Below, piece by piece: positions 26,263-62,026 of a DNA stretch of 64,000 nt. The stretch spans positions 56,850 through 120,849 of the forward strand of contig JBJEDW010000042.1 of NCBI GenBank assembly GCA_051872415.1, in the 5' to 3' direction. The stretch is from Bacilli bacterium. Its GTDB lineage: Bacteria > Bacillota_I > Bacilli_A > RF39 > UBA660. Numbering within the stretch: the first letter of the stretch is position 1; each line of letters begins with the position of its first letter. The position numbers were made by a program, and so were the translations under genes. The notes under the pieces were generated by a model. It made no database searches. It saw only the letters and a list, made by a program, of their open reading frames with translations, and had not been told where the DNA came from.

Positions 26263-27642
26263 CTAGACTGCTCCACATTCAAATATTTCGCTACCCAATG
26301 TCCATTTTGGACCTGTAATTAAGATATCTGAAGTTACTCCAGAACCGCAAAACATGGAATATCCATTTGTTACTTTACTTGTATCCCAAGTGTTTAAATC
26401 TAAATCATATAGTTTATATGTGTTTTGAAACATTTCCCCCATGTATAGTACCTTTGATACATTTAATTTATTGGCATTTATTGTTGTGAGATTCACAAAA
26501 CTATCAAACATATAACTGCTATCAGGATTGGCATATATTGTATCTTTGGTTGTTGCTATATATAAAGTATAATTGGAAGATGTGCCTTCTACCCAAGCGA
26601 TTACACTTCCATCTTGTTCTTCGCTTACATCAAGCACCTTCCCATCAACTGCATTACTTGTATCTATTACACTTTGACTCGTTTTAAATTCTACTATTTT
26701 TATAGAATCATTATAATAACCACCCCCAAATGAATCGTTGATTAGATTTTTGAAACTTCGTCCTATCATTAAAGTGGCATTTGTTTCTTCTTGAGGTATT
26801 TTTACTCCTATTTTAAATTTGTATTCTAACTTTGTATTTTCATCCCAGTTTCCTGCTTCTACATCTTTATCTACCCATACTCTCAGTTTAAATTTATCTG
26901 TTTGTTTGGTATTTGTTTTACTATGTATATTTGTATCATTATATAGTATGTAGTTATCTCCTAAAGAACTTATTTTTGTTGGAGATATTAATACATTTCC
27001 TTCATAATCTTCTAAATATATTTTTACTTCATTATCTTTTAAGAATTGAGAAGAATCTACATTATCTCCATTAAATGTATAATCATATGTTATTGTTTCT
27101 CCGGTATCATTTTGATACCAATCAATTAAATCAGCTTCGTAACCTGCTGTTTCTAAAGAATCAGCGCCATTTTGAGCATCTTCTTCAGACCATCCTATAC
27201 TTATAAAATAATTATAAATTCCTTCTTTATCATGGGCTATTATTGCATTATACAAAGTTGTTGCTTGGTCTGTTGTTACGCTGTACATATTGGCTAACCC
27301 ATTAATCAGCTTATTCTTACTTTCTTCTGATATATTAAAATAACAACTTGGATATGTCTCTTTACTTGGATTTTCTATTTCACTACATTTTGTATATATT
27401 TTTTCTAAGTAAAGACTATATCCTATTTCTAAATTTTTACTTGCTTTTGTTGTTACTGCAAAGTCGAATGTTTCATTTAATGTTTTACCTGTTTCATCAC
27501 TTATTGGAAGAGCATTTTCTATACTTATTATATCTGTATTACTTTCTAATAGTTCTAAAGATACTTCTCCTGTATCTATTTTGTTTGTTTCTCCTAAAAA
27601 GTTATAATTCCACACAGCAAAACTTATGCCTGTACAAAGCAT
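26263..27642 (-). CDS. DUF285 / BspA-type surface protein. Body of a phase-variable gene; the true start lies at 27766 behind a poly-G tract
   Basis: C-terminal YMFDSF..LDLNTWDTSKVTNGYSMF DUF285 repeats. The in-frame leader 27715-27766 encodes MKKLFKSTNKCSS-GGGG, which is cut off by the frameshift. Confidence 0.7.
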   Translation of the reverse strand: MLCTGISFAVWNYNFLGETNKIDTGEVSLELLESNTDIISIENALPISDETGKTLNETFDFAVTTKASKNLEIGYSLYLEKIYTKCSEIENPSKETYPSCYFNISEESKNKLINGLANMYSVTTDQATTLYNAIIAHDKEGIYNYFISIGWSEEDAQNGADSLETAGYEADLIDWYQNDTGETITYDYTFNGDNVDSSQFLKDNEVKIYLEDYEGNVLISPTKISSLGDNYILYNDTNIHSKTNTKQTDKFKLRVWVDKDVEAGNWDENTKLEYKFKIGVKIPQEETNATLMIGRSFKNLINDSFGGGYYNDSIKIVEFKTSQSVIDTSNAVDGKVLDVSEEQDGSVIAWVEGTSSNYTLYIATTKDTIYANPDSSYMFDSFVNLTTINANKLNVSKVLYMGEMFQNTYKLYDLDLNTWDTSKVTNGYSMFCGSGVTSDILITGPKWTLGSEIFECGAV

Positions 27643-31204: not shown

Positions 31205-32225
31205 TCAACTAGAAGGTATCTTTAACTGTTGCCCTATTGACAACAAATCACTCGTTAAATTATTATAACTCTTAAGTTCACTTACACTTATTCCATAATT
31301 ATTCGCTATCTTCCACAAACTATCTCCTGATTTTACTATATAAATTGTACTAACACCACCACTTGGTATCTTTAATTGTTGCCCTATTGATAATAAATCA
31401 CTTGTTAAGTTGTTATAACTCTTAAGTTCACTTACACTTATTCCATAATTATTTGCTATTTTCCACAAACTATCTCCTGATTTTACTACATAAACCACCC
31501 CAGTCTCTTCTTCTTTCTCACTCGGAATAAACAAAAGTTGACCTATATTCAAATTATTACTAGTAAGATTATTAGCTTTTTTTAATTCATCCACACCAAT
31601 TCCATAACTAGTGGCAATCTTCCATAAACTATCGCCTTTAACTACCACATAATAATTAGCCCCTGGCAAAGGCGCATATTTAACTCCTGTATAAATTGCT
31701 ATTGCACGTACAACAGCTTCGGCATACTTTAAATAATCTTTTTTTATCCTACTAGCATCATTACTATTATCAACATAACCAAATTCAACCATAACAGTCT
31801 CGTAATCAGGAGTATCTCTTAAAAGAACATAATAATCATTTTGTGTATTCTCTGGATCTCTAAGTTGATAATATTTATTAACAACTCCTCCAGAAGTAGT
31901 AACTTGATCTGCTATCTCTTCAGCAAAATCATCACTATTCCTAAGAGCATAAATAATTTCTAAACCCTCTTCTCCACCTTTATTCAAATGATTAGAAACT
32001 ACTATTACATTTTTATCATTGCCAAAAGCAGAAGTTATAATATTAACCCTTTCTTCATCCGAAATAGTCCTATCAGTACTTCTAGTAATAATATTTTCTA
32101 TTCCCAAATCATCAAGTCTATCTTTAATATAATTAGAAATTAAAAGAGCATAATCTTTTTCTACAATAGCATTACCTTGATTACCAGGATCACTTCCTCC
32201 ATGGCTGGTATCGGATAAACCCAGA
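31205..32225 (-). pseudogene. N-acetylmuramoyl-L-alanine amidase with 3 C-terminal LysM repeats; 5' end (about 10 codons plus promoter) missing
   Basis: Frame is open from TAG at about 32226 with no start. Reads ..SDTSHGGSDPGNQG.. (Amidase_3 zinc-binding region), then 3 LysM repeats. The first ATG (31205..32107 in the ORF track) lies well inside the catalytic domain. Confidence 0.7.
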
Positions 32226-32258
32226 AACTATATTTTTTATTATTTTATAGGTTATACT

Positions 32259-33866
32259 TTATAAATCAAGATTCCACTCTATCTTAATCTCTCTGGTATT
32301 GGTTTCTTTATTTAATGCACCAACATATATTTTTTCTATAAATTCATCCACAATTATTCTAGTTAGTTTTTTAATATGTTTATACTTTTTAAGTATGCTT
32401 TCAATGTCTTTAGAGTTTTCTTTTCTCTCTTTTGTTTCATCAAGTTGTTTTTCTATTTCTTCTAGTCTTAATTGATATGATTCAACATCCTTTGTATATT
32501 CATCTCTTAACATTGAAAAATCACTATCGGATATTACACCTTTCAACTTATCTGTATAAAGATTTTTAAAATATAATTTGCTTTCATTTATCTTCTTTTC
32601 AAGATTTGCTTTTTCCTTATTTAAATTAGTAATTAAAATATCTTGTTTATTTTCTCTTTCTAATGTTGCGTTATATTCATCTTCAAGTAATTTCTTATTA
32701 CACTTTTTTAATAATTCATTTATAGCATCAAGTACATAATTTTCAATAATATCATATCTTATTGATCTATTATTATCACAAGTATGATATTTTTTACTAC
32801 CTTTGCATTGTAGATATGCTCTTTTTTGCATAACTCCATCAGCACATTTAATATTGCATTGATTTCTCATAAAGATTCTTCCACATTCAGCACAATATAC
32901 TTTACTGCTTAATATATGTACTTTACCATCTTCTTTTGCTGGTCTATGATGATTCTTTAATCTTTTTTGAACTAAATACCATGTTTCATTATCAATGATT
33001 GCCTCATGAGCATTTTCTGTGACGCTCCATTCTGATTTAGGAACTTTTTTTGACTTATGATTTTTATAACTAATATTTGTTCTTTTACCTTGTACTAATG
33101 TACCATTATAAGTTTCATTTCGTAGCATTCTTGCTATTGTATCTGATGTCCATATTCCAGTTGTATCATAATCAAAATTGCAACATACGAAATTACTTCC
33201 AATAGATTTTTTATAAAGAGATGGACATAATATTTTTCTTTCATTTAGACTAGCACATATTCTATGATAACCAAGTCCATTTTTATATTTTTCAAATATC
33301 TCTCTAACAATGGGGGCAACATTTTCATCAATAATAAGTTTATGCTTATCATTAGGGTCTTTCATATAGCCATAAGGTGCAAAACTCCCCATAAATAAAC
33401 CATCATCTCTTTTATTTTTCAACGATTTCTTAACATTGTTAGATAAATCCTCTAAATACCACTCATTAACAAGTCCATTAATTTGTCTTGATTTCTTGTT
33501 AGCCTCATTGTTAGTATCAGCATTATCAACTATACTTACAAATCTAACTCCCCATTCAACAAACTTGTTATGTAGATATTTCTCTATTACTTCCATATCT
33601 CTTGAAAATCTACTTTGTGTTTTACATAATACAATATTTATTCTTCCATTTTCACAATCATTAATTAATCTATTAAAATCTGGTCTTTCAACTCCTGCTC
33701 CAGAATAATCATCATCTGAATAAATATCTACAATTTCCCAACCTTGATCCAAAGCATATTTTAAAAGCATACTCTTTTGATTAGTGATTGACTCACTATC
33801 ATCATTTTTATTTTTCTTATATCTATCCTCATCCGATAGTCTGCAATATACACCTACCTTTTCCAT
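32259..33866 (-). CDS. Large serine recombinase (resolvase N-terminal domain, recombinase and zinc-ribbon domains)
   Basis: MEKVGVYCRLSDEDR catalytic Ser motif. 535 aa with a Cys-rich C-terminal domain. Its stop lies 33 bp from the truncated amidase. Confidence 0.9.
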   Translation of the reverse strand: MEKVGVYCRLSDEDRYKKNKNDDSESITNQKSMLLKYALDQGWEIVDIYSDDDYSGAGVERPDFNRLINDCENGRINIVLCKTQSRFSRDMEVIEKYLHNKFVEWGVRFVSIVDNADTNNEANKKSRQINGLVNEWYLEDLSNNVKKSLKNKRDDGLFMGSFAPYGYMKDPNDKHKLIIDENVAPIVREIFEKYKNGLGYHRICASLNERKILCPSLYKKSIGSNFVCCNFDYDTTGIWTSDTIARMLRNETYNGTLVQGKRTNISYKNHKSKKVPKSEWSVTENAHEAIIDNETWYLVQKRLKNHHRPAKEDGKVHILSSKVYCAECGRIFMRNQCNIKCADGVMQKRAYLQCKGSKKYHTCDNNRSIRYDIIENYVLDAINELLKKCNKKLLEDEYNATLERENKQDILITNLNKEKANLEKKINESKLYFKNLYTDKLKGVISDSDFSMLRDEYTKDVESYQLRLEEIEKQLDETKERKENSKDIESILKKYKHIKKLTRIIVDEFIEKIYVGALNKETNTREIKIEWNLDL

Positions 33867-34674
33867 TTACTACAACACCTCAATTCCGATTAGTTGTAGC
33901 AAACATAAATCTACAAGGACATTATATATCATATTATGAATTATTTAAAACTACACTATTTTCTTCCTCTGCTAATATAACTCGTAGTAATTTTTTTGCT
34001 ATGATATCTTTTAATTTATTTTCTTCAATTTCTTTATTATCTTTTATTATATTTATTACATTATAATTTACCTCCATTTTTCTATACCCCCTTTATGATG
34101 TTCTATAAAGAATATCCTCCTATTTTAGTCATATATCAATCCTCCTTAAACTCTTTTAATAAATATTCCATATATGCCTGTTCTTCAGGACTTGCTAGAT
34201 CATCTACACAAACTTCTGGATGTTCCATCCAATATGGAATAAATTTATTATTTTTATTATAATTATTTCTTGTATATTCTTTTCTTTTATATTGGTAATT
34301 TTTTACTATGTTTTTATTCTCATTTTTTCTAACACCTTAGAATTTTCTTTACTCACAATATCTTCATTAAGATAAATTCTTCGTTATCCATTTATAAATT
34401 TAACACTTATATAATTTTTTCTTTTTAAATTATTAATTAAATTAGATATTGTTTTTTCTTTAACACTTAATGTATTAGCAAAGTAACTATTACTAGCATA
34501 GCAATACTCCTTATTATTTAATAGTGAGTTAATCACACCATAAACTAAACTTATCTATTTGGGAACAAGTTTGGTCATTTAATATTATTCTTGGTACAAC
34601 AATAAAATACCTTATAAAAGCCATGTGTTCCTTTCAAATAAATATAGTTCCAGTATCCTAACACCATATTATTA

Positions 34675-34735
34675 GTTTGAACTATAACATATTTTAAAGA
34701 ACTAATTAAAAAAATATATATGTTATAGTTCAAAC
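34675..34735. repeat. Perfect 18-20 bp inverted repeat AGTTTGAACTATAACATAT-N25-ATATGTTATAGTTCAAACT
   Basis: Read directly. Lies in a gene-poor stretch with decayed HTH-like ORF fragments. Confidence 0.6.
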
Positions 34736-35116
34736 TTGTATTCATCCTATATTTCTATAAGATAGGTTCTGATATAAGCCTATATATCTTACCGAGTCTC
34801 TTATAACTAGCGTTCATTGTTACTTTTCTAGTTAAGTGTTATTGTGTACATTCCGTTTGAGTATTCTTTATATATTAGATATTTTAATTCTTTAAACAAT
34901 AATAAGTTCAAAAACAATTGTTGGAATACACCAGATAGTTTACAATCTGAAATATTTCCAAGTGTAAAGCAAAAGAAAAAGAACTGAAGAAAAATTAATC
35001 ATTTAATTTTTCAACAACTCCTTGCTTTGTTTATTATTATTTATATAAATTATTATTTACTACAACTAGTTCTATTTACATTGGATTTATTCGTACTTTG
35101 ATGACACTATTTAATT

Positions 35117-35164
35117 CAAAAAAAGCGGCAAAAAAGCGGCAAAAAAGCGGCAAAAAAGCGGCAA
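35117..35164. repeat. Four tandem copies of an 11-bp unit (GCGGCAAAAAA), iteron-like
   Basis: AAAGCGGCAAAAAAGCGGCAAAAAAGCGGCAAAAAAGCGGCAAATG, period 11 bp, immediately 3' of gene 35168..36838. Confidence 0.8.
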
Positions 35165-35167
35165 ATG

Positions 35168-36838
35168 CTATTTTATTTTCCAGCATGAGCCACCTGATTT
35201 TGCATCATTATATATTTTTCCTTCTTTTTTTAAAACATCTAATAAATATCTAACTCTACTAACTTTATTCTTATTATCTAATGATTTAGGAAGTTTATCA
35301 TTTAATAGTGCTATTATCTCTTTTCTACTTGCCGAACCATATTCATTCAAATATTTTAGAATCATTTCCATATAAAATTCATTTTCTAAGCCAGAGTTAT
35401 ACACATATTCTTCTTTAGCTCCTGTTATCTTGGCAATATCTGATGAAATATAAATTTTAGGATATCTTCCTTCTATTAAATTATCTTTTCTTAAATAATC
35501 GCTTTGTTCTTTTGTAATTTCAAAACCTTTTTGTACCCTATCTAATAACATCACTTCATCTATATCTAAATTCGTTTTTTCAAATAATATTTTACTATAT
35601 TTTTCATCTATTATCTTTCCGTATAAAGTTACTTTAACACGATTATCTTCACTCAAATCATAATCAGGCATTGGAAAAAACTTTTTCTTTTGAATATCAT
35701 ATACTCTTCTTATCCCACTACCAACAGTATCAATCATATTTAAATTAACCATCGCATTAGCTAAAAATTGATTTCTATAATAAGGTGATGAAAAACCATC
35801 TTTTAAAACATTTTCAATTGTTTCAGGAATAAAATTTCCTTCATTAGTTATTATTAACTTATCTTTGTATTCCATAACATTTATATTGCCACGTAATTTA
35901 TAATCTTGGTGAACGATACAGTTGTTAATTAACTCACGAAGTATATAATTATCGTATTGATCTACTTCATTTGGAAATAAAGTGTTATCATTAACCATGT
36001 ATCTATATCTCAAATTTCGTATCTTCGATTTTAATTTCTCAACATTGATAATAAATGGTATACCAAAATGTTCATAATCGATAACATTAAAATCATCATA
36101 AAGTTTCCATGTCATTTTAGGTGTATAGCCATTCATTAAATAATCATCATCATTCTTTCCTAATAATAGCATACAAGCCATAGTAATTTTGTTATTTAAT
36201 GTTAATTTAACTTTATTTAAAAAATCAATATCAGATAAATTATCTATTTCATCAGATATACTTTTTCCTTTATATTTAACCTTAAATTGTTCTCTAGCCA
36301 ATTTGATTGCTTCCTTATCTAAATTATCTATTGTTGCATTTTCTATTACTTGCCTTGACCAGTCATAATTTGCTGTTGCTTTAATTTGTTCTATCTTATT
36401 TGATGTTAAAGGAGATATTGATTCACCATTTCTACCATATGGAAATCCTTTCCAATTAATTGGTGTACCAGAAGCAGCTGGAACTTGAAACATAATTACT
36501 CTATTATGATCCTTTGTAAATTCATATATTTCAATAAACCCTATGTTATCTGTTGTATTATCAGAGATTTGTTTCTTCACTTTGTTAAAATTATTATCTC
36601 TATAAAAATTGGTATTAGTTAATTCATGCGTCTTATCATCAACACCAAAAACTATCCAAGAATATTGTTTATTTTTTAAATTTGCTTCATTACCTAAAGC
36701 TGAAAAATATTTACCCAAAGTATCAATATCGAAATTGTTTTCTGCTCTTTTAAATTCTACGCATTCATCCTCTGGATTTAATAATAGCTCATCTAAAATT
36801 TTATTTAACTCCTCGTTATTTTTATACAAAGCAATCAC
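35168..36838 (-). CDS. COG2865-type putative transcriptional regulator (AlbA_2/Schlafen-like DNA-binding domain + HATPase_c_4 + C-terminal wHTH)
   Basis: N-terminal ECVEFKRAENNFD...LGKYFSALGNEA...IVFGVDDK, typical of the AlbA_2 domain. 556 aa. Confidence 0.6.
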   Translation of the reverse strand: MIALYKNNEELNKILDELLLNPEDECVEFKRAENNFDIDTLGKYFSALGNEANLKNKQYSWIVFGVDDKTHELTNTNFYRDNNFNKVKKQISDNTTDNIGFIEIYEFTKDHNRVIMFQVPAASGTPINWKGFPYGRNGESISPLTSNKIEQIKATANYDWSRQVIENATIDNLDKEAIKLAREQFKVKYKGKSISDEIDNLSDIDFLNKVKLTLNNKITMACMLLLGKNDDDYLMNGYTPKMTWKLYDDFNVIDYEHFGIPFIINVEKLKSKIRNLRYRYMVNDNTLFPNEVDQYDNYILRELINNCIVHQDYKLRGNINVMEYKDKLIITNEGNFIPETIENVLKDGFSSPYYRNQFLANAMVNLNMIDTVGSGIRRVYDIQKKKFFPMPDYDLSEDNRVKVTLYGKIIDEKYSKILFEKTNLDIDEVMLLDRVQKGFEITKEQSDYLRKDNLIEGRYPKIYISSDIAKITGAKEEYVYNSGLENEFYMEMILKYLNEYGSASRKEIIALLNDKLPKSLDNKNKVSRVRYLLDVLKKEGKIYNDAKSGGSCWKIK

Positions 36839-36868
36839 CTCTTTTTTATTTTATCATACTTTTAATAA

Positions 36869-39232
36869 TTATAGTGTCATTTGACAATTATTTTCAATAA
36901 TTTCATATCCTACTTTTTCATATGCTTTTTTTCTTTTTAAAAACATATTTCTAATCATTGAAAAATTATCATCAACATAATCATAAACTATTATTTCTTT
37001 TTTATTCTTATTTTTTCTATGTAGTCTTCCTGTATATTGTACTATTCTATTTACACTAGATATTGGCATGGTTAAGAATAATACTTCTAATGTTGAATCA
37101 TCAAAACCCTCACCAATACATGAACTTGTAGCAATTATAATTTTATTTTCATTGTTTTCTTTAATATTAGAATTTAGTTCATCATATTTTTTAAGTATTT
37201 TCTTACCTAATCCACCGCGATACACAATTATATTATTGGTTATTTTTGATAATTTTCATATAAATATTCTAAATGATCAATTCTTTCCGTTAATACTAAT
37301 ACATTTTTACCATTTTTAAACTCTTTCTCAACATCTTTTATGACCACTTCATTTCTAATAACATCTTTCGAAATTAAATCATATATTTCATTAATTTTAT
37401 AATCTGTTACATTTTTGTTAACAAAATTTAAATGAACACTTTTACTATAAACTTTCATTGATAAATTTAATTTTTTATTATATTCTTTCATATCAACTCT
37501 ATATCTAATATCACCACATTGCATTTTAATAATTGGTGTATGCCCATTTTCTTTTTCTGGAGTTGCAGATACACCATATACATATTTAGCATTCATCATA
37601 TTTAATGCTGCTTCATAGGTATAAGCAGATAAATGATGGCATTCATCTATAATTATCATTCCATAGTTTTTAACAATATCATTAAATTTACCATCATTGT
37701 AAATAGTTTTAATACTAGCTACATCAATTTTATTTGTTAAAGTGTTTTTATTATCACCAATTTGTCCCACTTCTTCAATATTTAAAAATTCTTTTATTCT
37801 TTCTTTCCATTGCTTTAATAGTGATAAATTAAATGTAACTACAAGAGTATTAACATTTCTTGCCTCAACCAGTTTACAACATATAACTGTTTTACCAAAC
37901 CCAGTGGGTGCCTCAAGTATTCCATTTTTCATACTTCAACATTTCTTCTAGTGCTATACTTTGCTCTTCTCTTAATTTACCATTGAATTTTATATTTAGT
38001 TTTTGACCTTTATTTCTCTTATCAATAATATTCATCTTTATATTATTTTGATTACATAAATCAGATAAATACTCAAGTTTACCTCTAGGAATCATCAAAT
38101 ATTTTTCATCTTCTTTGCTGCAATCTATTACCATAGGAACATTATGAACAGACATTCTCATTCTTTGTTTTCTAAAAAATTCTGGATTGGCAAAAGTTGC
38201 AAGTCTTCTGAAACAATTTTTTACAACCGCACTTAAATTTGCTTTATCTATATAAATCATATTATCTAAGATAATATCAATACTTTTAGGAAAGTCAAAA
38301 TTATTTTTTTGCTTATTTTTAATTTCTTTTTTAATTTCTACATATTCATTACTAATATCTATTGTATTTTCAGATAAAATTCTTATTACACTAAATACAT
38401 CATCATAGTTCATTTTTTTTACACTACTTAAATAACTATATTGATCATCATAAGCAATAAAGTTTCTATCCAAGAAAGCAGTGTTATTATATTTCATAGG
38501 TTCATTTTGAAATGGAAGTGCGATTAAATTACCATAACCACCTTTAGGCATAGTATCTTGATTTGGAAACATTCTATCAAAAGAATCAATTTTTAAATTA
38601 TCACGTATTTCCATTGTTTTGGATAGCAATAGACTGCCCATCTTTCTAGCTGTTAATGCTTTTATATTATTTTCAAAGAAAATCCATACATGAATACCAT
38701 GGCCTGATCTACTACGCTCAATAGAAATAGGAACATTATACTTGTCACAAACGCTTGCAAAAGCAAGCACATCTTCTTTAATATCATTTTCATTTTTTTT
38801 ATCATCAAAATCAAAAGCCAAAAAGTAACAAGATTCATCTTCTAACATAGGATAAATTCCAATAGGATTACTATTAAATAAATGATTACTAATTACTTCT
38901 TTATCTATTGGTTTATCAATCCAATAATGACAATCTCTGCATTTTTTACCCATTGTTTTATTACAAACATTTTTATTCCATTCATTAGCACATTTAGGTA
39001 TATAATATTTCTTACTTGGATCTTTTTTATCAATTGATAGATAAGGATATATACTATCTCTACCTTTAAAATAACTCATAAAAACATTAACTTTTTCGTC
39101 ATTAGTAAAATTTATTTTAGGTTGATTATCATAAGTTTTAAGTAACTTCTTTAATTCATTAATTTCATTAATCAATTTCTTCGCTTCAAGTGTTTTTTTA
39201 TTTATGGTTTCAATTATCTCATTTCTTTGCAT
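36869..39232 (-). pseudogene. PrimPol (AEP primase-polymerase) fused to SF2 helicase, broken into three ORFs by two frameshifts
   Basis: 37913..39232 has the AEP motif RSGHGIHVWIFF and Cys clusters. 37240..37932 has helicase motifs I to III (APTGFGKT, DECHH, SAT). 36869..37225 has motifs V and VI (QYTGRLHR). The ORFs overlap or abut. Confidence 0.65.
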
Positions 39233-39349
39233 ATTATGCCCCTTAAAAATAATAAAGTTACTATATTATGCAATATTTTTAATTTTTTTTAAAGATTTAA
39301 AAGGATTTTGCATATTTTTCCGGTATATATACAATAGGAGGTGATGTTT

Positions 39350-39475
39350 ATGCAAGAATTAAACAAAGCAGAAATGCTTAATATCAATGGTGGTTCATCA
39401 ATAGTTGCTTGTACATATTATGGATTAGTTAAAATCACAAGATGTATCATCAAATTCATAAGTTCTAGATTCTAG
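39350..39475 (+). CDS. Double-glycine-leader class II bacteriocin-like peptide (41 aa), unannotated
   Basis: AGGAGGTG RBS 6 nt upstream. MQELNKAEMLNINGG|SSIVACTYYGLVKITRCIIKFISSRF, with an LNKxEMxxIxGG leader. Confidence 0.6.
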   Translation: MQELNKAEMLNINGGSSIVACTYYGLVKITRCIIKFISSRF

Positions 39476-39489
39476 TAAAAATTGCAGAA

Positions 39490-40146
39490 TTAATTTTTCT
39501 GCTTTTTCATTATTGTAAAAATATATCCAATAACACTTATTGGTAATAATATATACCAATAATTACTGTAATTAAGTAAATTATTGCTCACTGCATATAA
39601 ATTATGAATCAAATGTAAAAGAATTGGATAAATTAGGTTATTTGTTTTATAAAATGAATAATTCCATATTAAACTTATTCCTAACAAAATAATAAAACCA
39701 TCAATATTATAGATATGTATTAAGGCAAAAACAGTAGATGTTAATAGTATAGAAATAAAAATATTTAACTTTTTATTTAATTTTTTATATAATCCAAATC
39801 TAAATATTATTTCTTCAAATATTGGTGCAAAAATACAAGTAGTCACAATTTCAGCAATTATTTCAAAAATATTTGAAGGAATTTGAACATCAGTCGTTGA
39901 TATTGGAATAAATGTAACTAATTGTTCTAATAATATCCTAATAATAAATGATAAAAACATGTATTTCAATAAAATATTAACACTAATTTTTCTAATATTT
40001 AAACATTCTCTTATGTCAATTTTATCTTTACTTTTTAAATCATTTATTACTGCAAGTCCAAATAAGATTACTATCACAATATAAAATAATCTAGAAAAAT
40101 AAAAATCATTTATAACTTTATCTACCATTTTATCACCTATCTTCAT
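39490..40146 (-). CDS. CPBP family intramembrane metalloprotease (CAAX/Abi, bacteriocin immunity-like)
   Basis: EEIIFRFGLY motif 1 and FALIHIYN motif 2. Convergent with the peptide gene. Confidence 0.75.
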   Translation of the reverse strand: MKIGDKMVDKVINDFYFSRLFYIVIVILFGLAVINDLKSKDKIDIRECLNIRKISVNILLKYMFLSFIIRILLEQLVTFIPISTTDVQIPSNIFEIIAEIVTTCIFAPIFEEIIFRFGLYKKLNKKLNIFISILLTSTVFALIHIYNIDGFIILLGISLIWNYSFYKTNNLIYPILLHLIHNLYAVSNNLLNYSNYWYILLPISVIGYIFTIMKKQKN

Positions 40147-40273
40147 ACTAATTATACCATTTTGATGATTATTTAAAAAGATACTTCTTAAAAAGTAATT
40201 GGTTTGCTTATATTTGTATAGATTATAATTTGTTACAACTAATTCTTTTTATACTGGGTTTAATCTCACTTGG

Positions 40274-40306
40274 GTGTCCTGCATCAATAGCAACCTTATA
40301 ATTCAT
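40274..40306 (-). other. Amidase gene 5' stub (MNYKVAIDAGH) with RBS, fused to element-end sequence
   Basis: GGTGATGTTTATGAATTATAAGGTTGCTATTGATGCAGGACAC, then unrelated sequence. About 50 bp identical to the 41027-41075 copy. Confidence 0.6.
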
Positions 40307-40666
40307 AAACATCACCAATTAATTTTATGATAGTATTAATAAATAATTGTCAAAAACTATACAAAAAAGGAGCTGTAATAAAATAATTTAATTCAATTCT
40401 TTTATAGTACATATAATTATTTTCAGCTTTTAATAATTTATTTATGACTTTTCTATTATCCAAAAAGAGAAACATCATTTTATTTTGACATTTCTCTTTA
40501 AAAGTTAATTTATTTATTTATTTTCTATTTTCTTTAATTCTGCTAACTCTATTTGAGCTATTGATTTTTTCGGAGTTGGCAAATTTTCTGGCAAAGTACC
40601 ATCTAATCTTTTAATCGTTTCTCTCACTGCTTTTCCTACTTTATGATGAGTCATATTAGCATCGTG

Positions 40667-40897
40667 TTAGTTATTTATATTTTCTTTTTTTAGTTTTGCT
40701 TCAATTTGAACAATACAAAATAAATTATCTGCTAATTCTTCACTGCCCATATAATCTAATATTTCATCTTTATCAGTAAGCCCTATTCGGTTTGCTATTT
40801 GCTTAGCATTTTCTCCACCATACAAACCTTGATAACCATAATTAGTAAATTTACCACAATTGTCTAATCCTTCAAAAATAACTAACACGCCTATCAC
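40667..40897 (-). CDS. Hypothetical small protein (76 aa)
   Basis: ORF only. Lies in a region of decayed phage-like fragments; a DinD/Bro-like C-terminal fragment MTHHKVGKAVRETIKRLDGTLPENLPTPKKSIAQIE is at 40505-40645 on the minus strand. Confidence 0.3.
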   Translation of the reverse strand: MIGVLVIFEGLDNCGKFTNYGYQGLYGGENAKQIANRIGLTDKDEILDYMGSEELADNLFCIVQIEAKLKKENINN

Positions 40898-41023
40898 CTA
40901 ACATATACATTATAGCATTAAAATATGACTTTTTATCAAAAAAGACAATCTATTATTAAATAAATCATCCTTATATTTACTAGGTTTTATAGCTATTCTT
41001 CATATTTGGGATATTCCAACACC

Positions 41024-41059
41024 TTAATGACCTTCATCAATAGCAACCCTATAATTCAT
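41024..41059 (-). other. Second amidase 5' stub (MNYRVAIDEGH-stop), followed by a diverged copy of the element right-arm sequence
   Basis: ATGAATTATAGGGTTGCTATTGATGAAGGTCATTAA, then AGGTGTTGGAATATCCCAAATATGAAGAATAG, about 70% identical to the 40240-40273 arm. Confidence 0.5.
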
Positions 41060-41110
41060 AAACATCACCACTTAATTTTATGCAAAGTAAAAAGAAATAA
41101 TTATTAGAAA

Positions 41111-50706: not shown

Positions 50707-51647
50707 TTATGGAATCAAAAGAGTTTGTCCTATTTGCAAAATATCACTAGATAAATTATTAAGCTTAATCAAATCATTAACATTAACATCATAAATTTGA
50801 GCAATTTTCCATAAACTATCTCCACTCTTAACAATATAAGTTTCATATTCACTAGTCTTTGGAATAACAAGCTGTTTACCTATACTAAGCATATTACTGC
50901 TTAAATTATTAGCCTCCTTAAGTTCATCAACTGTAATATTATATTTCTTAGCAATACTCCACAAACTATCACCTGATTTTACTACATAAATAATTTGATC
51001 ACTATTATTTTTATCAATACTAGGTATTAATAGTTGCTGACCTATTTGTAATAAAGTAGTACCCAAGTTATTATAATCAACAATATCATTAACACTCACA
51101 CCATATTGATTAGCAATATTCCACAAAGAATCACCAGATTTTACAGTATAAACAACATAATCACCAGGAGAAACATTAGAAGAAGTCGGAATAACCAAAG
51201 TTTGTCCAATATTAATAAGATTACCACTAAGTCCATTAGCATTCTTTAAACTTTCAACACTAATATCATATTTATTAGCTATTCCATATAAACTATCACC
51301 TTTTTTAACAACATAAGTATTTGCACTAACCCCAGGAAGCGAATAAGGAACACCTATATAATCCACAACAGCTTTAACAACAGCCTCTACATAATCATCT
51401 AAGTTATTCTTAAGCTGACTAATATCATCCTTAGGACTATCAATAAAACCATATTCTACCAAAATAGGTTCAGTCTTTCCTGTTTCTCTATGAATAAAGT
51501 AATAATCCTTAGTAGGATCACTAGGAAGTCTTCTCTGATAATAACTACGAATATTTTGTCCTTCACGAGCTATATTATTAAGAACAGACTTAGACAAAGT
51601 ATCACTATTTCTTAAAGCATAAACTACTTCAGCACCATCGCCACCTG
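50707..51647 (-). pseudogene. C-terminal about 313 codons of a LysM amidase (end of catalytic domain plus 4 LysM repeats), 5' part severed
   Basis: Frame opens at TGA right at the junction. Reads SPGGDGAEVVYALRNSD.., about 90% identical (protein) to 55040..56233. Junction after CACCT 51643-51647. Confidence 0.75.
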
Positions 51648-53586: not shown

Positions 53587-54801
53587 TTAAAATTCTTCAC
53601 TTAATAAAAAATCAATCAAATTCAAATGAATAATACCATCACGAGATAAATCTATCTTATCAAGAGAAATAACATATTTTGGATAATTATCTTCTATAGA
53701 TTTATACGCTCCAAATTCTCTTTCAATAGTACTTTCATTGCCTTTCATTTCATAAGTGACTTGAATATATTTAATATTTCCATCTTTCTTTGCTAAAAAG
53801 TCAACTTCACCATTTTTAGTTTTACCAATATATACTTCATAGTTTCTATTTATTAATTCGTTATAAACAATATTTTCTAAAACAACATAACTTTTAAATT
53901 CTGGATTATTATTTTTAATTTGGGCAATTCCTAAATCAGTTGCATAATACTTATTTAACGTTTTTAAAACTCCTTTACCTGCAATATCATATCTATATAC
54001 CTTTTTAAGTATTAATGCTTTACATAAAGCATCTATATAATTATATAATGTTTCATTAGATATTTTTTTATTTTCTTTATCTAGATATTTTATAATATTA
54101 TCAGAAGAAAACTCACGACCAGCAGTTTCAATCAAATATTGTAATATCATATCAAACAAAACTGTATCTTTTAAATTTAATCTTTTTACAACATCTCTTA
54201 AAATAATTGAATCATATACACTATGAAGATAATTTTTAATATCAATTTCATTTGTAAACTCACATCTATTAGGAAGTCCACCCCATTTAGCGTAATCCCA
54301 AAAAGTATCTAAGTCTTTTCCATCTTTATTTGTTAAAGAAACATACTCTTTATAAGATAAAGGATTAATATTAAATGAAACATATCTTCCTGATAAAACT
54401 GATGACAATTCATCTGATAACATTTTACTATTAGAACCAGTTAAAAATATGCTTATATTTTTTATTGAAGCTCTTAATGAATTAACAACTTTTTCAAAGT
54501 TATCTACATTTTGAATTTCGTCTAAAAACAAATAATATATTTTATTATCTTGAATTTTATCTTTTACGTATTTATTTAGCTTTTTATAATCTAGTAATTC
54601 TTCAAATTCAATAAATTCAAAATTAATAAATATTATATGTTCTTCATCAATTTTTCTTTTTTCTTTTAATTCTTCTATTATTTGATTTAGAATAACTGAT
54701 TTACCGCATCTTCTTATACCAACCAATATTTTAATTAAATCTGAATCATAAAATCCTCTTATTTTAGATAAATAATCTTCTCTTAAAAGCATATTAATCA
54801 C
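53587..54801 (-). CDS. AAA ATPase of the AAA_14 + DUF4143 family
   Basis: VGIRRCGKS Walker A, LFLDEIQ Walker B and a C-terminal DUF4143-like region. Confidence 0.7.
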   Translation of the reverse strand: MINMLLREDYLSKIRGFYDSDLIKILVGIRRCGKSVILNQIIEELKEKRKIDEEHIIFINFEFIEFEELLDYKKLNKYVKDKIQDNKIYYLFLDEIQNVDNFEKVVNSLRASIKNISIFLTGSNSKMLSDELSSVLSGRYVSFNINPLSYKEYVSLTNKDGKDLDTFWDYAKWGGLPNRCEFTNEIDIKNYLHSVYDSIILRDVVKRLNLKDTVLFDMILQYLIETAGREFSSDNIIKYLDKENKKISNETLYNYIDALCKALILKKVYRYDIAGKGVLKTLNKYYATDLGIAQIKNNNPEFKSYVVLENIVYNELINRNYEVYIGKTKNGEVDFLAKKDGNIKYIQVTYEMKGNESTIEREFGAYKSIEDNYPKYVISLDKIDLSRDGIIHLNLIDFLLSEEF

Positions 54802-54833
54802 CTCTGATTACATTATATATTATTTTTATATTT

Positions 54834-54871
54834 TTGTAAAGTTATTACGGTTAATCGTAATAACTTTACAA
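54834..54871. promoter_or_regulatory. Perfect 16-bp-arm palindrome TTGTAAAGTTATTACG-GTTAAT-CGTAATAACTTTACAA
   Basis: Read directly. Lies between the amidase stop and the start of the DUF4143 ATPase. No flanking T run, so operator-like rather than a terminator. Confidence 0.5.
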
Positions 54872-55039
54872 ATGTAAAAATTATTACACCAGTAGTATAT
54901 TGGTCAAAAAATAAAATTCTATAAATTATATTCAATTTATTTCAAACAATCCATTTTTTATCAAAACACAAAATAGATTAAAATATCTACAAGAATATCT
55001 CAATCTATTATAAATAATTACCAAAAAATGGAAAATAAA

Positions 55040-56233
55040 CTAAGGTATCAAAAGAGTTTGCCCTATTTGCAAAACATCACTAGATAAATTATTAAGCTTA
55101 ATTAAATCATTAACATTAACATCATAATTTTGAGCTATTTTCCACAAACTATCACCACTTTTAACAACATAAGTTTCATATTCACTAGTCTCAGGTATAA
55201 TAAGTTGTTGTCCTATACTAAGCATGTTACTACTTAAATTATTTGCATCTTTAAGTTCATTAACAGTTATATTATATTTCTTAGCAATACTCCATAAACT
55301 ATCACCTGATTTTACTACATAAATAATTTCATCACTATCAAGAGTAACACTAGGTATTAAAAGTTGTTGTCCAATTTGTAATAAAGTAGTTCCTAAATTA
55401 TTATAATTGGCAATATCATTAACACTAACACCATATTGATTTGCAATCTCCCATAAAGAGTCACCCTTTTTAACAGTATAAACCACATAATCACCTGGAA
55501 GAACATTGTTAGAAGCAGGAATGATTAAAGTTTGTCCAATATTAATAAGATTACCACTAAGTCCATTAGCACTCTTCAAGCTTTCAACACTAACACCATA
55601 TTTATTAGCTATTCCATATAAACTATCACCCTTTTTAACAACATAAGTATTAGCACTTACACCAGGAGCAACATAAGGAACACCTATATAATCCGCAACT
55701 GCTTTTACAACAGCTTCAACATAATCATCTAAATTATTCTTAAGTTGACTTATATCATCCTTAGGACTATCAATAAAACCATACTCCACTAAAATAGGTT
55801 GGGTCTTCCCAGTTTCCCTATGAATAAAGTAATAATCCTTAGTAGGATCACTAGGAAGTCTTCTTTGATAATAACTACGAATATTTTGTCCTGTTTTAGC
55901 AATATTATTAAGAACAGATTTAGCTAAAGTATCACTATTTCTTAGAGCATAGACTACTTCAGCACCATCGCCACCTCCCGCATTTATGTGATTAGAAATA
56001 ACTATCACATCATCTCTATTACCAAAAGCATTAAGTATCCTACTAACTCTTTCAGTCTTAGAAAGCGTCTCATCAGTATCACGAGTAAGTTTAACAGGAA
56101 TTCCAAGTTCATTAAACCTATCATACATATATAAAGCAGCCTCTAAAGTAAAATCTTTTTCCTGTAAATTTCCATTAATAGCACCAGGATCAACTCCTCC
56201 ATGTCCTGCATCCACTACTATTTTATAATTCAT
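55040..56233 (-). CDS. N-acetylmuramoyl-L-alanine amidase (Amidase_3) with 4 LysM repeats, intact
   Basis: MNYKIVVDAGHGGVDPGA...SNHINAGGG...E. The C-terminus has four LysM repeats of the type YVVKKGDSLYGIANKYGVSV. Confidence 0.85.
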   Translation of the reverse strand: MNYKIVVDAGHGGVDPGAINGNLQEKDFTLEAALYMYDRFNELGIPVKLTRDTDETLSKTERVSRILNAFGNRDDVIVISNHINAGGGDGAEVVYALRNSDTLAKSVLNNIAKTGQNIRSYYQRRLPSDPTKDYYFIHRETGKTQPILVEYGFIDSPKDDISQLKNNLDDYVEAVVKAVADYIGVPYVAPGVSANTYVVKKGDSLYGIANKYGVSVESLKSANGLSGNLINIGQTLIIPASNNVLPGDYVVYTVKKGDSLWEIANQYGVSVNDIANYNNLGTTLLQIGQQLLIPSVTLDSDEIIYVVKSGDSLWSIAKKYNITVNELKDANNLSSNMLSIGQQLIIPETSEYETYVVKSGDSLWKIAQNYDVNVNDLIKLNNLSSDVLQIGQTLLIP

Positions 56234-56421
56234 AAACTATCACCTAAAATATCTTATGAAAAAAATCAAAAATGGTGCAAATATATTAAATGTAAACAAA
56301 ACAAAATTACCAAAAATTACCAAAAAAAATAGGTTGACATAGTCAACTCTAAGCCTCTCCATTCCAAAAATATAAAGGAATTTAGAAAGTTTTCGCAAAT
56401 AATACTATTAGGAGGTGTTAT

Positions 56422-56550
56422 ATGTCAAATTTAAATAATTCAGAACTAATGAATATTTATGGCGGTAGAGCAGGATTTGCTTTACCTAATTTTGATGCTT
56501 ATATCAAAATGTTTAATTGGATTTATAAAACTGTTAAATCCTGGTTCTAA
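56422..56550 (+). CDS. Double-glycine-leader bacteriocin-like peptide (42 aa), unannotated
   Basis: TAGGAGGTG RBS. MSNLNNSELMNIYGG|RAGFALPNFDAYIKMFNWIYKTVKSWF. Confidence 0.6.
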   Translation: MSNLNNSELMNIYGGRAGFALPNFDAYIKMFNWIYKTVKSWF

Positions 56551-56644
56551 TTTTTTACAGTAGTATTTTTGCTACTGCTTTTAATTTTTAATAATATATA
56601 AATGATTAAACATATAACACCAAATACAAAGTAAACTATATTAT

Positions 56645-57060
56645 TCAATTAATATATCCTATCATTGCATAAATATTGTGTATAAAATGCATAATTATTG
56701 GATATATTAAATTATCCATTTTAAAGTAAGAATAATTCCATATTAAACTAATAACTAATAGTATTACAAAAACATCTATCCCATAAAAATGTATTAATGA
56801 AAATATTATTGAAGTTAATAGCATAATTATAATATTAGATTTAAATTTTTTATTTAAATATTCATATAATCCAAATCTAAATATTATTTCTTCAAAAATT
56901 GGAGCAAACAAACACATAGTAACTATTTCTAAAACTATAGACCAAAAATTCGTTGGAATATTTGAAATAGTTTCATCTATTGGTAAAAAATAAATTGTTT
57001 GTTCAATTATATTCTTAATATTTCTAAAGGAAAGTGTTTATCAATATTTTTTACTTCCAT
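56645..57060 (-). pseudogene. CPBP-family (Abi/CAAX) immunity-type protease, N-terminal part disrupted
   Basis: ORF 56645..56917 carries EEIIFRFGLY and SLIHFYG. Upstream TM-coding sequence is out of frame. Confidence 0.55.
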
Positions 57061-57189: not shown

Positions 57190-58482
57190 TTAATTTTTTA
57201 AATTTCCAATAGAAACAACATATACCCCATCTTCACGAACATAAGATAATTCCGAAGCTGTTAACACCATTAAAAATGCCGGTTCCCCGCTTTTAGCTAT
57301 ATCTATTTTATCTTTAAATTGGATTAATGTCTTAGCAGCATCATCAATTTGTTTTGCTCCCATTTTAACTTCAATTGCACCCCATTTACCATCAGAAGTT
57401 TTTAATATAAAATCGACTTCAAAATCTTTGTTATCTCTAAAATAGAATAAATCTGCATTTATAGATTCGGCATATATTTTTAAATCTCTATAACACAAGT
57501 TTTCAAAAATAAATCCAGTAAAATTTAAATCATTTATTAAATTTTCTTTTTTTAATCCTAAAGACGCTATTGCTATAGAAGGATCTATTAATTCTAATTT
57601 AGGACTTGTTCTTAATTGTATTGATGATCTTAAATTCAAATTAGTTGCAGGAACATATTCGAGAACAAATAATTTTTCTAACGTTAATAAATAATCATCA
57701 ACGGTAGGTCTTGAAATTCCTAGATTAAATAAATTTGATGTATCGTTTACAATTGTAATTTTATTTGTTGCTGTTGAAACATTTCTACTAATACTTTTTA
57801 ATAAAGCTTCCATTTTATATTTATCTCGTTCAATGCCATCTAATGATTTTACATCTTCATTAATTAAACTTTTAACATATTCTGTAGCAACTTTAAATTT
57901 ATTTTCACCAGCAATATTTAATGATTCAGGCCATCCACCTCTTATCATTACATTAATAATATCATCAAAAGATAAACTAGAAACTCCAGATATATCTTTA
58001 CTATTTATAATGTCTAATAATGATACTTTTCCATTTGATTCTCCAGATTCATACAATGACATTGTTCTCATCATTAGCTTTGTTATCCTACCTGTACCAG
58101 TATGCATAATCTCGTTTTCAACTGGTCTTGCAGAACCCGTCAAGATATATTGTCCTTTTAAACTAGTATGATCAATATCCATTCTAATAGAATCCCATAT
58201 AACAGGATACATTTGCCATTCATCAAATAATCTTGGTTTTTCACCTTCTAGAAACAACGATGGTTTTGTATTACTAATATTATCATATTGAATTTTTTTA
58301 TCAGGATCTTGTAATTCAACTAAACTATTACAAAATTGTTTCGCAGTCGTTGATTTTCCACACCATTTTGGTCCTTCTATCACAATTGCTCCCATATATT
58401 CAAGCTTATTTTTTATTATATTATCTACAATTCTAGGCATATATTTTTTCATAAATGAATCCCTCCAAATATTATTATACAC
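57190..58482 (-). CDS. AAA ATPase of the AAA_14 + DUF4143 family (second copy, diverged)
   Basis: IEGPKWCGKST Walker A and a DUF4143-like C-terminus. Confidence 0.7.
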   Translation of the reverse strand: MYNNIWRDSFMKKYMPRIVDNIIKNKLEYMGAIVIEGPKWCGKSTTAKQFCNSLVELQDPDKKIQYDNISNTKPSLFLEGEKPRLFDEWQMYPVIWDSIRMDIDHTSLKGQYILTGSARPVENEIMHTGTGRITKLMMRTMSLYESGESNGKVSLLDIINSKDISGVSSLSFDDIINVMIRGGWPESLNIAGENKFKVATEYVKSLINEDVKSLDGIERDKYKMEALLKSISRNVSTATNKITIVNDTSNLFNLGISRPTVDDYLLTLEKLFVLEYVPATNLNLRSSIQLRTSPKLELIDPSIAIASLGLKKENLINDLNFTGFIFENLCYRDLKIYAESINADLFYFRDNKDFEVDFILKTSDGKWGAIEVKMGAKQIDDAAKTLIQFKDKIDIAKSGEPAFLMVLTASELSYVREDGVYVVSIGNLKN

Positions 58483-58649: not shown

Positions 58650-58946
58650 TCAATCAATTCCTTTGTAGTGGTAACTAAACTCTGCACCTCCCGCATTTAT
58701 GTGATTAGAAATAACTATAACATCATCTCTATTACCAAAAGCATTAAGTATCCTACTGACTCTCTCACTCTTAGAAAGGGTCTCATCAGTATCACGGGTA
58801 AGTTTTACAGGAACACCAAGTTCATTAAACCTATCATACATATATAAAGCAGCTTCTAAAGTAAAATCTTTCTCCTGCAAATTACCATTAACAGCACCAG
58901 GATCTACTCCTCCATGATCAGCATCCACTACTATTTTATAATTCAT
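58650..58946 (-). pseudogene. N-terminal about 87 codons of the amidase (DADHGG variant) with promoter, severed after HINAGG
   Basis: About 97% nucleotide identity to 55976-56340, including about 100 bp upstream. Diverges exactly after CACCT (58684-58688). Confidence 0.75.
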
Positions 58947-61070: not shown

Positions 61071-62026
61071 TAAAACAACTCCTTCTTAAATATTCCCTTA
61101 ATATCACTCCAATTATCTGGAAATCCCATTCTATCAAGAACTTTATTAATAGGTATAGTCCTTAAATTAAAATCTAAATTATTAATAGCATCCTCTATTT
61201 CTAAAACTAAATCATTAACTTCATTCTCCTTAAGCATAGACTTAAGAATAATAACAAGAGCAAATAAATCATTCTTACCATAAATATACTCATTATCCAT
61301 CATAGGAATATTAAGTTTTCTATGATACACAGAATCTTCAATACATTTTTGAGTTCTATTTTCATAAACAATATCCTCATGAGCACATAAATTACGATAA
61401 TTAGACAAAATACTAAGATTATTCATAAAAGCTTTTAAATCAAGATCATAAAATTCAATAATATCATATTGATCCTCTTTCTTTAAAACCGAAAAAAGCT
61501 CAACAACAATTCCAAAAGACAACACCTTAACAAGAACCCACAAAGGAATATAGCCATAATTAAGAGCATAATGTCTAGTAGCAGAATGAACAGTAGCATT
61601 AGTCTTAATTTGTCTTTTCATTTTACCAATCACATCATTTACTTGCCTTCTGCAATCAAAAGATGTATTAAAATTAGAAGACTTTAAATATTCCTTTTCT
61701 CTATAACCATATTTCTTAGAAAGTTGATAAGATATTATAGACTTAATATTATTCTCAATTATTAAAATATTTTTAAATAATATATTTCTAAGACGCCTAT
61801 CAAATAAAAATAAACTATATACTTCTTCAAACTTAGTACCTTCAATATATCTAGATTTATCCTTTGATTTCATAAAAAGATGACGATATCCATTCAAAAA
61901 GAAATAATTTTCCCTAAGAAGAACTTCCTTAGCAAACTCTTCATCATCTATTACAAGACCCTTATCCCTCAAAATCTTAATTTGTTCATCTAAAGACTTA
62001 AATGTTTTGCTTCTCATAAGTACCAC
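61070..62026 (-). CDS. Abi_2 family abortive-infection protein (AbiD/AbiF-like)
   Basis: LDEQIKILRDKGLVIDDEEFAKEVLLRENYFFLNGYRHLF matches the Abi_2 N-terminal signature. Its stop overlaps the htrA start codon. Confidence 0.65.
   Translation of the reverse strand: MVLMRSKTFKSLDEQIKILRDKGLVIDDEEFAKEVLLRENYFFLNGYRHLFMKSKDKSRYIEGTKFEEVYSLFLFDRRLRNILFKNILIIENNIKSIISYQLSKKYGYREKEYLKSSNFNTSFDCRRQVNDVIGKMKRQIKTNATVHSATRHYALNYGYIPLWVLVKVLSFGIVVELFSVLKKEDQYDIIEFYDLDLKAFMNNLSILSNYRNLCAHEDIVYENRTQKCIEDSVYHRKLNIPMMDNEYIYGKNDLFALVIILKSMLKENEVNDLVLEIEDAINNLDFNLRTIPINKVLDRMGFPDNWSDIKGIFKKELF

Follow-up and report, generated by a model that had tools for sequence, protein, structure and literature searches.

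Two short open reading frames in a genome of the uncultured Bacilli raise the question whether peptides with a double-glycine (GG) leader, each encoded beside a gene for a CPBP-type intramembrane protease, represent bacteriocins with their immunity proteins. An earlier note on this DNA had answered in the affirmative and had placed both gene pairs on inserted elements. The analysis presented here covered a stretch of 64 kb (termed the window) of a contig of 126,668 bp together with the 10-kb flanks of related loci, all data stemming from metagenome-assembled genomes (MAGs) and metagenomes.

The first peptide gene, pep1, occupies positions 39350..39475 of the forward strand (ATG at 39350, stop codon to 39475) and encodes a precursor of 41 amino acids, composed of the leader MQELNKAEMLNINGG and the mature part SSIVACTYYGLVKITRCIIKFISSRF and classified as type T1. 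The second, pep2 (56422..56550, forward strand), specifies a 42-residue precursor of type T2a with MSNLNNSELMNIYGG as leader and RAGFALPNFDAYIKMFNWIYKTVKSWF as mature part. Both genes are preceded on the same strand by the ribosome-binding site AGGAGGTG, read from the sequence at 39336..39343, i.e., 6 nt 5' of the pep1 ATG, and at 56410..56417 for pep2. The two leaders comprise 15 residues and match the double-glycine consensus exactly: positions -4, -7 and -12 are hydrophobic and position -8 is acidic in either peptide (L-12, E-8, L/M-7, I-4, G-2, G-1). Residues 11-15 read NINGG in pep1 and NIYGG in pep2; AG, SG or GV only rarely takes the place of the GG within the family, and L4 and I12 are invariant among 21 family sequences. 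A strict GG-leader pattern applied to all six frames of the window retrieved exactly two open reading frames, pep1 and pep2, as compared to none in 200 first-order Markov simulations. In full agreement with the earlier note, two short reading frames with strong ribosome-binding sites and GG leaders are therefore present, and they are genuine genes, not chance ORFs. The GenBank record of the MAG annotates both as hypothetical proteins (ACI31R_03265 and ACI31R_03355), so that the term "unannotated", which the note had applied to them, is true only of the ORF track from which it was prepared. Scans for sigma-70 promoters at the peptide genes yielded no score above shuffled expectation and, therefore, no promoter was assigned to them; for pep1, the most promising candidate, at 39307-39335, would intrude on the ribosome-binding site of the gene.

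The mature parts carry net charges of +4 (pep1) and +3 (pep2) and possess amphipathic C-terminal helices, which is consistent with their original description as cationic and hydrophobic; a confident helix is predicted by AF2 for residues 21-40. A disulfide bond in pep1 was considered and dropped because relatives have W, Y, F or L in place of the second cysteine. The two peptides align over their full length with 34% identity and belong to a family that comprises 21 clusters at 90% identity in a word-indexed search and 26 clusters at 50% identity in an HMM search of 1.84 billion representatives (E<1e-3). Family members range from 29 to 91 residues and have the 15-residue leader in common. Their mature parts (24-33 residues, net charge +1 to +5) follow the pattern x5-8-P-x-F/Y-...-K-x-F-x-W-I-x-K-x-I-x-S-W/R-F, and the hydrophobic moment of the C-terminal 18 residues amounts to 0.41-0.77, exceeding that of most shuffled sequences. 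The ribosome-binding site is likewise conserved among the peptide loci. At least 18 contigs encode exactly the pep2 protein, which is specified by seven different DNA sequences; a comparison of 11 distinct DNA variants of the T2a type yielded pN/pS values of 0.066 (leader) and 0.064 (mature part). Decayed copies exist as well, namely a truncated peptide of 32 amino acids beside a 77-residue CPBP fragment on many contigs and a further case at locus L023.

With regard to known peptides, resemblance is confined to the leader. NCBIfam models for lactococcin G-beta/enterocin 1071B and cerein 7B/lactobin A and the GG-leader model TIGR01847 matched 11-12 of the 21 members, in the leader only and below threshold. 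TIGR01847 scored 15.6 bits with pep2 (cut-off 15.7 bits), and 11 of the 21 members reached E<1, the lowest E-value being 0.004. None of the NCBIfam models matched the mature parts, none of the Pfam families matched the peptides, and sequence searches of the PDB with both peptides returned nothing meaningful, such that no similarity of the mature peptides to a described bacteriocin was found in these three resources. The family carries no name, and purifying selection keeps the two reading frames conserved.

The partner of pep1, CPBP1 (39490..40146, reverse strand), is an Rce1-like intramembrane protease (PF02517, 1.3e-20) encoded by an ORF of 218 amino acids; homologues suggest Met7 at 40128 as the start, preceded by AGGTGA and resulting in a protein of 212 amino acids. 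The second CPBP gene (56547..57020, reverse strand) had been described as disrupted, and this proved correct: approximately 190 bp of the 5' part are replaced and two single nucleotides are deleted as compared to intact homologues, so that CPBP2 is a pseudogene. A 90-residue ORF of this pseudogene, at 56645-56917, still matches PF02517 with 1.1e-19, and both CPBPs are well above the gathering threshold of the family (73.9 and 70.9 bits vs. 22.4 bits). The motifs EExxxR, FxxxH and HxxxN are intact in CPBP1, and 31 sequences with identities of 47-94% show no exchange at the residues E111, E112, R116, F140, H144, H178 and N182. An AF2 model of the protein (pLDDT 91, pTM 0.87) consists of eight helices, and the best two PDB matches of this model, albeit with weak E-values, were SpdC (6u0o, probability 0.98) and Rce1 (4cad, probability 0.90, TM-score 0.51), which are to our knowledge the only CPBP structures. 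Searching the PDB with the CPBP profile produced no meaningful match. None of the 162 close relatives is named, and a search for relatives on plasmids found only Bacillus CPBPs of about 29% identity. A functional tie between CPBP and amidase as in SpdC-SagB was considered and rejected, since the amidase gene serves as the attachment target and does not keep a fixed orientation towards the pair.

Peptide and CPBP genes are arranged tail to tail in both pairs of the window. A hairpin at 39484..39502, terminator-like on both strands, lies between or overlaps the 3' ends of pep1 and CPBP1, while the stop codons of pep2 and CPBP2 share 4 nt, the 3' end of the pseudogene overlapping the pep2 stop codon. 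The 3' ends of the two genes abut or overlap in all loci. Starting from CPBP alone and considering the 23 loci that include sequence 3' of the CPBP gene, an intact convergent GG peptide was found in 21, a pseudogene in one and no peptide gene in another. The adjacency typical of Abi-type immunity genes is therefore present, whereas the co-transcription also typical of them is absent, as the genes converge and do not form an operon. Three CPBP clades pair with three peptide subtypes, and even a CPBP of only 39% identity is accompanied by a convergent member of the peptide family. The two genes form a cassette of approximately 0.7-0.8 kb, and the block containing pep2 and its CPBP (56362..57020) is 85-94% identical in type-T2a loci, with homology breaking off sharply on both sides. 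Peptide and CPBP thus constitute a fixed two-gene module, and the statement that a CPBP gene partners each peptide gene (PF02517 matches, convergent) is upheld. In pair 2, a perfect peptide gene adjoins a dead CPBP gene.

Pair 1 resides within an element of about 8 kb, in the order amidase start, P' arm, CPBP1, pep1, TOTE/SLFN cargo, recombinase, P arm and amidase remainder, and the following features of this region all lie on the reverse strand. The orphan 5' end of an Amidase_3 gene (40274..40329), equipped with a ribosome-binding site and an ATG at 40306 and starting with MNYKVAIDAGH, is cut after the DAGH codons. It is followed by the P' arm of attL (CCAAGTGAGATTAAACCCAGTAT, 40251..40273), which is located directly upstream of the CPBP1 promoter region. 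The defense cargo (35168..39232) consists of a TOTE AEP primase (37913-39232), a fragmented ResIII helicase (36869-37932) and an SLFN/AlbA_2-HATPase_c_4 ATPase (35168-36838). A large serine recombinase with Resolvase, Recombinase, Zn_ribbon_recom and DUF4368 domains is encoded at 32259..33866, and the P arm of attR (TTCTGGGTTTATCCGATACCAGCCAT, 32201..32226), which is identical in L013, has the inverted core CTGGGTTTA in common with the P' arm. The 3' part of the split amidase-LysM gene (31205..32200) resumes at the GG codons of DAGHGG. The P and P' arms of this element are also present in loci L012 and L013. A second orphan amidase 5' end (40995..41082) is cut at the same codon and followed by a decayed DinD/Bro-like remnant (40514-40897). 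Element 1 accordingly combines an internal recombinase, a split target gene and att arms in inverted repeat, as in SCC-like elements.

The island that harbors pair 2 exhibits the order 5' amidase, AAA_14a-CPBP2 pseudogene-pep2, intact amiA, AAA_14b-UPF0158-TPR and 3' amidase. Here again, all features apart from pep2 that are detailed in the following are located on the reverse strand. Upstream of CPBP2, an AAA_14/DUF4143 ATPase corresponding to the PADLOC candidate PDC-S01 is encoded at 57190..58482. Beyond it, at 58665..58688, a class-2 attL joins amidase codon ~87 to the P' arm (GGTG/CAGAGTTTAGTTACCACTAC). The adjoining orphan amidase 5' fragment (58689..58946, approximately amino acids 1-87) is 86% identical to amiA, the match continuing past attL to 58653, amino acid 101. 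The amiA gene itself (55040..56233; Amidase_3 and four LysM domains) is intact, adjoins pep2 and contains an empty class-2 attB (GGGAGGTGG/CGATGG) near 55972. A 3' amidase fragment (50707..51646, amino acids 87-397) closes the island at a junction without a matching P arm. The attP reads GTAGTGGTAACTAAACTC-core-GAGTTTAGTTACCACTAC, the class-2 arms form a perfect 18-bp inverted repeat, and class-2 attR junctions occur in L003, L046-48 and L050. Neither a recombinase nor a matching attR was found in the pair-2 island, and the island is a remnant. It may have originated by target-restoring integration, tandem insertion or recombination between paralogues, without any single history being favored, and a misassembly across the amidase repeats of about 390 bp (92% identical) may also account for its structure. 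The assignment of both pairs to inserted elements is hence clearly confirmed for pair 1, while pair 2 sits in an island devoid of a recombinase.

The same setting recurs in related loci. Insertions occupy two conserved sites in N-acetylmuramoyl-L-alanine amidase genes, one between the DAGH and GG codons and the other between the NAGG and GDGAE codons. Genes adjoining the cassette vary by contig and encode Gabija, SIR2 plus HerA, Shedu, Hachiman, TOTE AEP-helicase with an SLFN-type ATPase, HipA, AbiE, AAA_14/DUF4143 (PDC-S01) or restriction-modification systems; they are accompanied by large serine recombinases, HTH_3/HTH_36 regulators and, once, a Mob_Pre relaxase. Homologues of the recombinase are encoded in L002, L003, L013, L035, L042 and L046-51. 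Loci L002 and L013 contain two P' arms in the same orientation, which marks two cassettes in tandem, one with and one without a recombinase. Moreover, the L002 flank, with Fic, HtrA and Abi_2, shares synteny with the window at 59-62 kb; the contents of one and the same chromosomal hot spot therefore differ by strain. No relatives of the cassette were found in IMG/VR and, thus, it is not phage-borne. The peptide-CPBP cassette is a constant module of serine-recombinase arrays inserted in amidase genes of uncultured gut Bacilli; these arrays, tandem or nested, are piled up from small integrative cassettes that large serine recombinases move, and the genes surrounding the peptide-CPBP cassette are interchangeable anti-phage systems. 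This conserved module of arrays that target amidase genes and carry exchangeable anti-phage systems is the main context that had escaped the earlier note.

An exporter for the peptides was sought at several levels. The earlier statement that the window lacks one is correct insofar as no ABC/C39 protein is encoded among its ORFs of at least 200 amino acids; Pfam lists revealed no Peptidase_C39/ABC exporter within 10 kb of the related loci, and a motif scan of the window and 40 loci found no C39/ABC exporter either. The C39-peptidase ABC exporter that would be expected at a locus of GG-leader peptides is therefore absent. On the other hand, the C39-type leader consensus is exact and kept across diverged subtypes, which argues for an exporter in trans, and we therefore assign a probability of about 0.5 to the reading that the pair is a class II-like bacteriocin with Abi-type immunity and export in trans. 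An ABC transporter with a C39 peptidase, its gene lying in another part of the genome, would cleave the precursor behind GG and export it, and the released peptide would permeabilize the membranes of related bacteria that do not carry the cassette. CPBP would shield the producer in the manner of the Abi-type immunity proteins PlnI, PlnL and SkkI and, for the mobile cassette, the pair may act as a competition or retention module. Several points weaken this reading. No exporter is encoded nearby, the genes are convergent and the mature part is unlike known bacteriocins; in addition, an intact pep2 beside a dead CPBP2 is awkward, fitting badly with an expressed self-toxic product. The ingredients of the original proposal, i.e., GG leader, cationic peptide and CPBP, stand, while the identity given to them there goes further than they do, as the mature part matches no characterized family, the genes are not co-transcribed, no exporter lies within 10 kb and CPBPs are also documented in peptide maturation.

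The last point leads to a rather unlikely alternative, according to which CPBP is a maturation protease and not an immunity protein; by cleaving off the GG leader or processing the precursor in some other way, it would allow a toxin or signal to be made without a C39 exporter. The absence of an exporter near any of the cassettes, the strict conservation of the CPBP catalytic residues, a leader as constrained as the mature part and a peptide subtype that tracks the CPBP clade are all consistent with such a role. A precedent exists in Streptococcus anginosus, where the CPBP protein SilX, a CAAX protease, matures the GG-type signal SilCR and is needed for it without any function in immunity (PMC9298176). 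However, the leader fits the consensus of the C39 peptidase domain at every position, making a C39 exporter in trans the simplest explanation; the peptide would, in addition, need a way across the membrane, and either gene can persist alone, as exemplified by pair 2 of the window and by L017. A related idea, which we regard as unlikely, takes the pair as a self-contained module independent of any exporter: CPBP itself would recognize and cut the GG leader and free the peptide, either within the membrane of a cell that is infected or loses the cassette, by way of abortive infection or addiction, or as a matured product, and the pair would then be a core part of the defense arrays instead of a passenger bacteriocin. 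If true, this would reveal a direct role of CPBP in the processing of GG-leader peptides.

It is distinctly doubtful that the pair is an intracellular defense or addiction module, in which the amphipathic peptide would be a latent membrane toxin and the protease would destroy or activate it upon phage infection or cassette loss. No exporter would be necessary in this case, the convergent, overlapping transcription units recall toxin-antitoxin layouts, and known defense systems flank the cassette in all contexts observed (Gabija, SIR2-HerA, Shedu, Hachiman, TOTE, HipA, AbiE, PDC-S01). Cassettes of serine recombinases carry mixed cargo, though, so that neighborhood alone is weak evidence. Furthermore, CPBP1 matched none of the families in PADLOC-DB 2.0, in which neighboring genes matched PrimPol/TOTE, PDC-S01 and others; a literature search for a connection between CPBP proteins and anti-phage defense found nothing relevant, and one would not expect an intracellular toxin to possess a canonical GG leader of the secretion type that is under strong selection.

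A function of the peptide as a GG-leader pheromone comparable to ComC, BlpC or plantaricin A, reporting the density of carriers and produced or sensed with the help of CPBP, strikes us as very improbable. The size of 24-33 residues, the positive charge and the aromatic C-terminus resemble those of induction peptides like plantaricin A, and the family falls into discrete subtypes, but no histidine kinase or response regulator adjoins any of the cassettes and the helix is conserved across subtypes, unlike in hypervariable pherotype systems. That the small ORFs are chance products or decaying, functionless relics, as the decayed copies (the 32-residue peptide with its 77-residue CPBP fragment, L023 and CPBP2 of the window) might suggest, is scarcely credible in view of a pN/pS of ~0.065, the lack of pattern matches in 200 simulations, the conserved ribosome-binding site and the retention of the pair down to 39% CPBP identity.

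Returning to bacteriocin plus immunity protein as the preferred reading, the locus adds an unnamed family of GG-leader peptides, together with its cognate CPBP, from gut Bacilli that are uncultured and Mollicutes-related and from which no characterized bacteriocins are known. A competition-type module would travel as a constant part of serine-recombinase arrays and, as the remaining content of the arrays is interchangeable anti-phage cargo, inter-bacterial warfare and phage defense would share a single mobile platform. Further islands could be found with the help of the att sites in amidase genes, which are precisely defined.

Among known systems, a close parallel is provided by the GG-leader bacteriocins plantaricin EF, plantaricin JK and sakacin 23K, for which the Abi/CPBP proteins PlnI, PlnL and SkkI, respectively, serve as immunity proteins (Kjos et al., 2010, as cited in PMC8538875). 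Class II GG-leader bacteriocins with Abi immunity resemble the pairs studied here in a GG leader of about 15 residues, a small, cationic, amphipathic and unmodified peptide and an adjacent CPBP with three protease motifs. In contrast to the plantaricin/sakacin-Abi systems, the mature peptide shows no sequence similarity, one peptide is present instead of two, the genes are convergent and overlapping instead of co-transcribed, the locus comprises neither a C39 ABC transporter nor an accessory protein or regulatory genes, and the pair is located on serine-recombinase cassettes.

Further cases of CPBP-dependent peptide maturation are SagE with streptolysin S and MroQ with AgrD. Just as in these and in SilX/SilCR, a CPBP adjoins a small exported peptide, and the leader ends in GG as it does in SilCR and SagA; there, the CPBP is needed for production. 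The SilX, SagE and MroQ loci, however, feature ABC exporters, modification enzymes or two-component sensors, whereas only two genes are present here.

With respect to export, the streptococcal blp/cib-type loci are instructive, as they contain orphan pairs of a bacteriocin-like peptide and a CAAX protease with export in trans by BlpAB/ComAB (see PMC4860687). GG-leader peptides and CAAX proteases are scattered away from the serving exporter there as well, and orphan GG peptides that depend on a distant exporter are well known in streptococci. The pairs described here differ in that they stem from uncultured, Anaeroplasma-like gut Bacilli and occur in the context of mobile cassettes, with no quorum-sensing regulon visible.

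With respect to mobility, the elements are comparable to the staphylococcal tandem arrays of the SCC/SCCmec type, which large serine recombinases mobilize and in which anti-phage systems are enriched (PMC11470126). Both have in common a large serine recombinase, a single conserved chromosomal target gene, tandem arrays that include recombinase-less cassettes, and diverse defense cargo. Unlike SCC, which targets rlmH, the elements studied here use two codon sites in an amidase gene, belong to a different bacterial group and contain the peptide-CPBP cassette as a recurring constant module. Most likely, the peptide family and its CPBP clade, undescribed as they are, represent a known kind of toxin with self-protection in a new setting.

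Positions 31205-40329 of the window comprise an element of about 8 kb that is moved by a large serine recombinase, together with the Amidase_3-LysM gene in which it lies. Its insertion point coincides exactly with the DAGH|GG codons, i.e., the zinc-ligand codons of the amidase, and an inverted CTGGGTTTA core is common to both att arms. The element is partly decayed, as its TOTE helicase is broken up into three ORFs and an HTH_36-like gene is left only as a fragment (34384-34536). The TOTE conflict-system gene, in which AEP primase and ResIII helicase are joined and which is fragmented in the window, adjoins the gene for an SLFN AlbA_2/HATPase_c_4 ATPase (35168-39232) within the element that carries the GG-leader peptide gene pep1; in the related loci L042-L045 on other contigs, the TOTE gene and the gene for the SLFN-type ATPase are both intact. 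Just upstream of the latter gene in the window, the 11-mer AAAAAAGCGGC occurs in four copies arranged head-to-tail (35119-35162).

Serine-recombinase elements of another family insert at codon ~87 of the amidase (NAGG|GDGAE). The attB and attL sites of this family are found in the window (55972 and 58665-58688, respectively), and attR is found in the related loci L003, L046-48 and L050. The attP arms constitute an 18-bp inverted repeat without mismatches, GTAGTGGTAACTAAACTC. The P' arm of this family is also present about 150 bp upstream of pep2, the second peptide gene, in L002-L009, a mark of tandem cassettes.

Two paralogous AAA_14/DUF4143 ATPases (53587-54801 and 57190-58482) match the PADLOC candidate system PDC-S01 with E values of 1.5e-138 and 9e-60, and a 66-bp palindrome (54819-54884) is located upstream of the former. 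The top sigma-70-like site of the pep2 region (TTGACA-18-TATTAT, 11/12 matches, 56399-56428, minus strand) overlaps the start codon of pep2; the candidate -35 hexamer corresponds to the Met-Ser codons. This hexamer is kept in some variants, not in all. The site is directed out of the cassette toward the neighboring gene, i.e., the intact amidase gene amiA in the window and defence cargo on other contigs.

A widespread relative on contigs of up to 1.1 Mb (L046-L051) carries a decayed pair only, consisting of a 32-aa peptide in which YSG replaces YGG, plus a CPBP fragment of 77 aa. As elsewhere, this pair resides within a split amidase gene, and it is flanked by an HTH_3/Peptidase_M78 pair on one side and a serine recombinase on the other. 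In the window, two short ORFs (40514-40897) with an orphan amidase 5' end on either side appear to resemble a decayed anti-repressor of the DinD/Bro-N type; they are probably what is left of a further cassette.

A gene for an HtrA-type protease (Trypsin_2 and PDZ) is followed by one for an Abi_2 (abortive infection) protein (59832-62026). Both show synteny with the L002 flank, and the hot spot thus has its chromosomal border here. Elsewhere in the window, a Dam-like D12 methyltransferase gene adjoins a 409-aa ORF (11835-14119), possibly its restriction partner; neither this ORF nor large ORFs of 523 and 429 aa (18046-19617 and 62596-63885) had a match in Pfam searches. A DUF285 ("Mycoplasma protein of unknown function") protein is encoded at 26263-27642, which fits a Mollicutes-related lineage, and so does the labelling of related MAGs as "Anaeroplasma sp."
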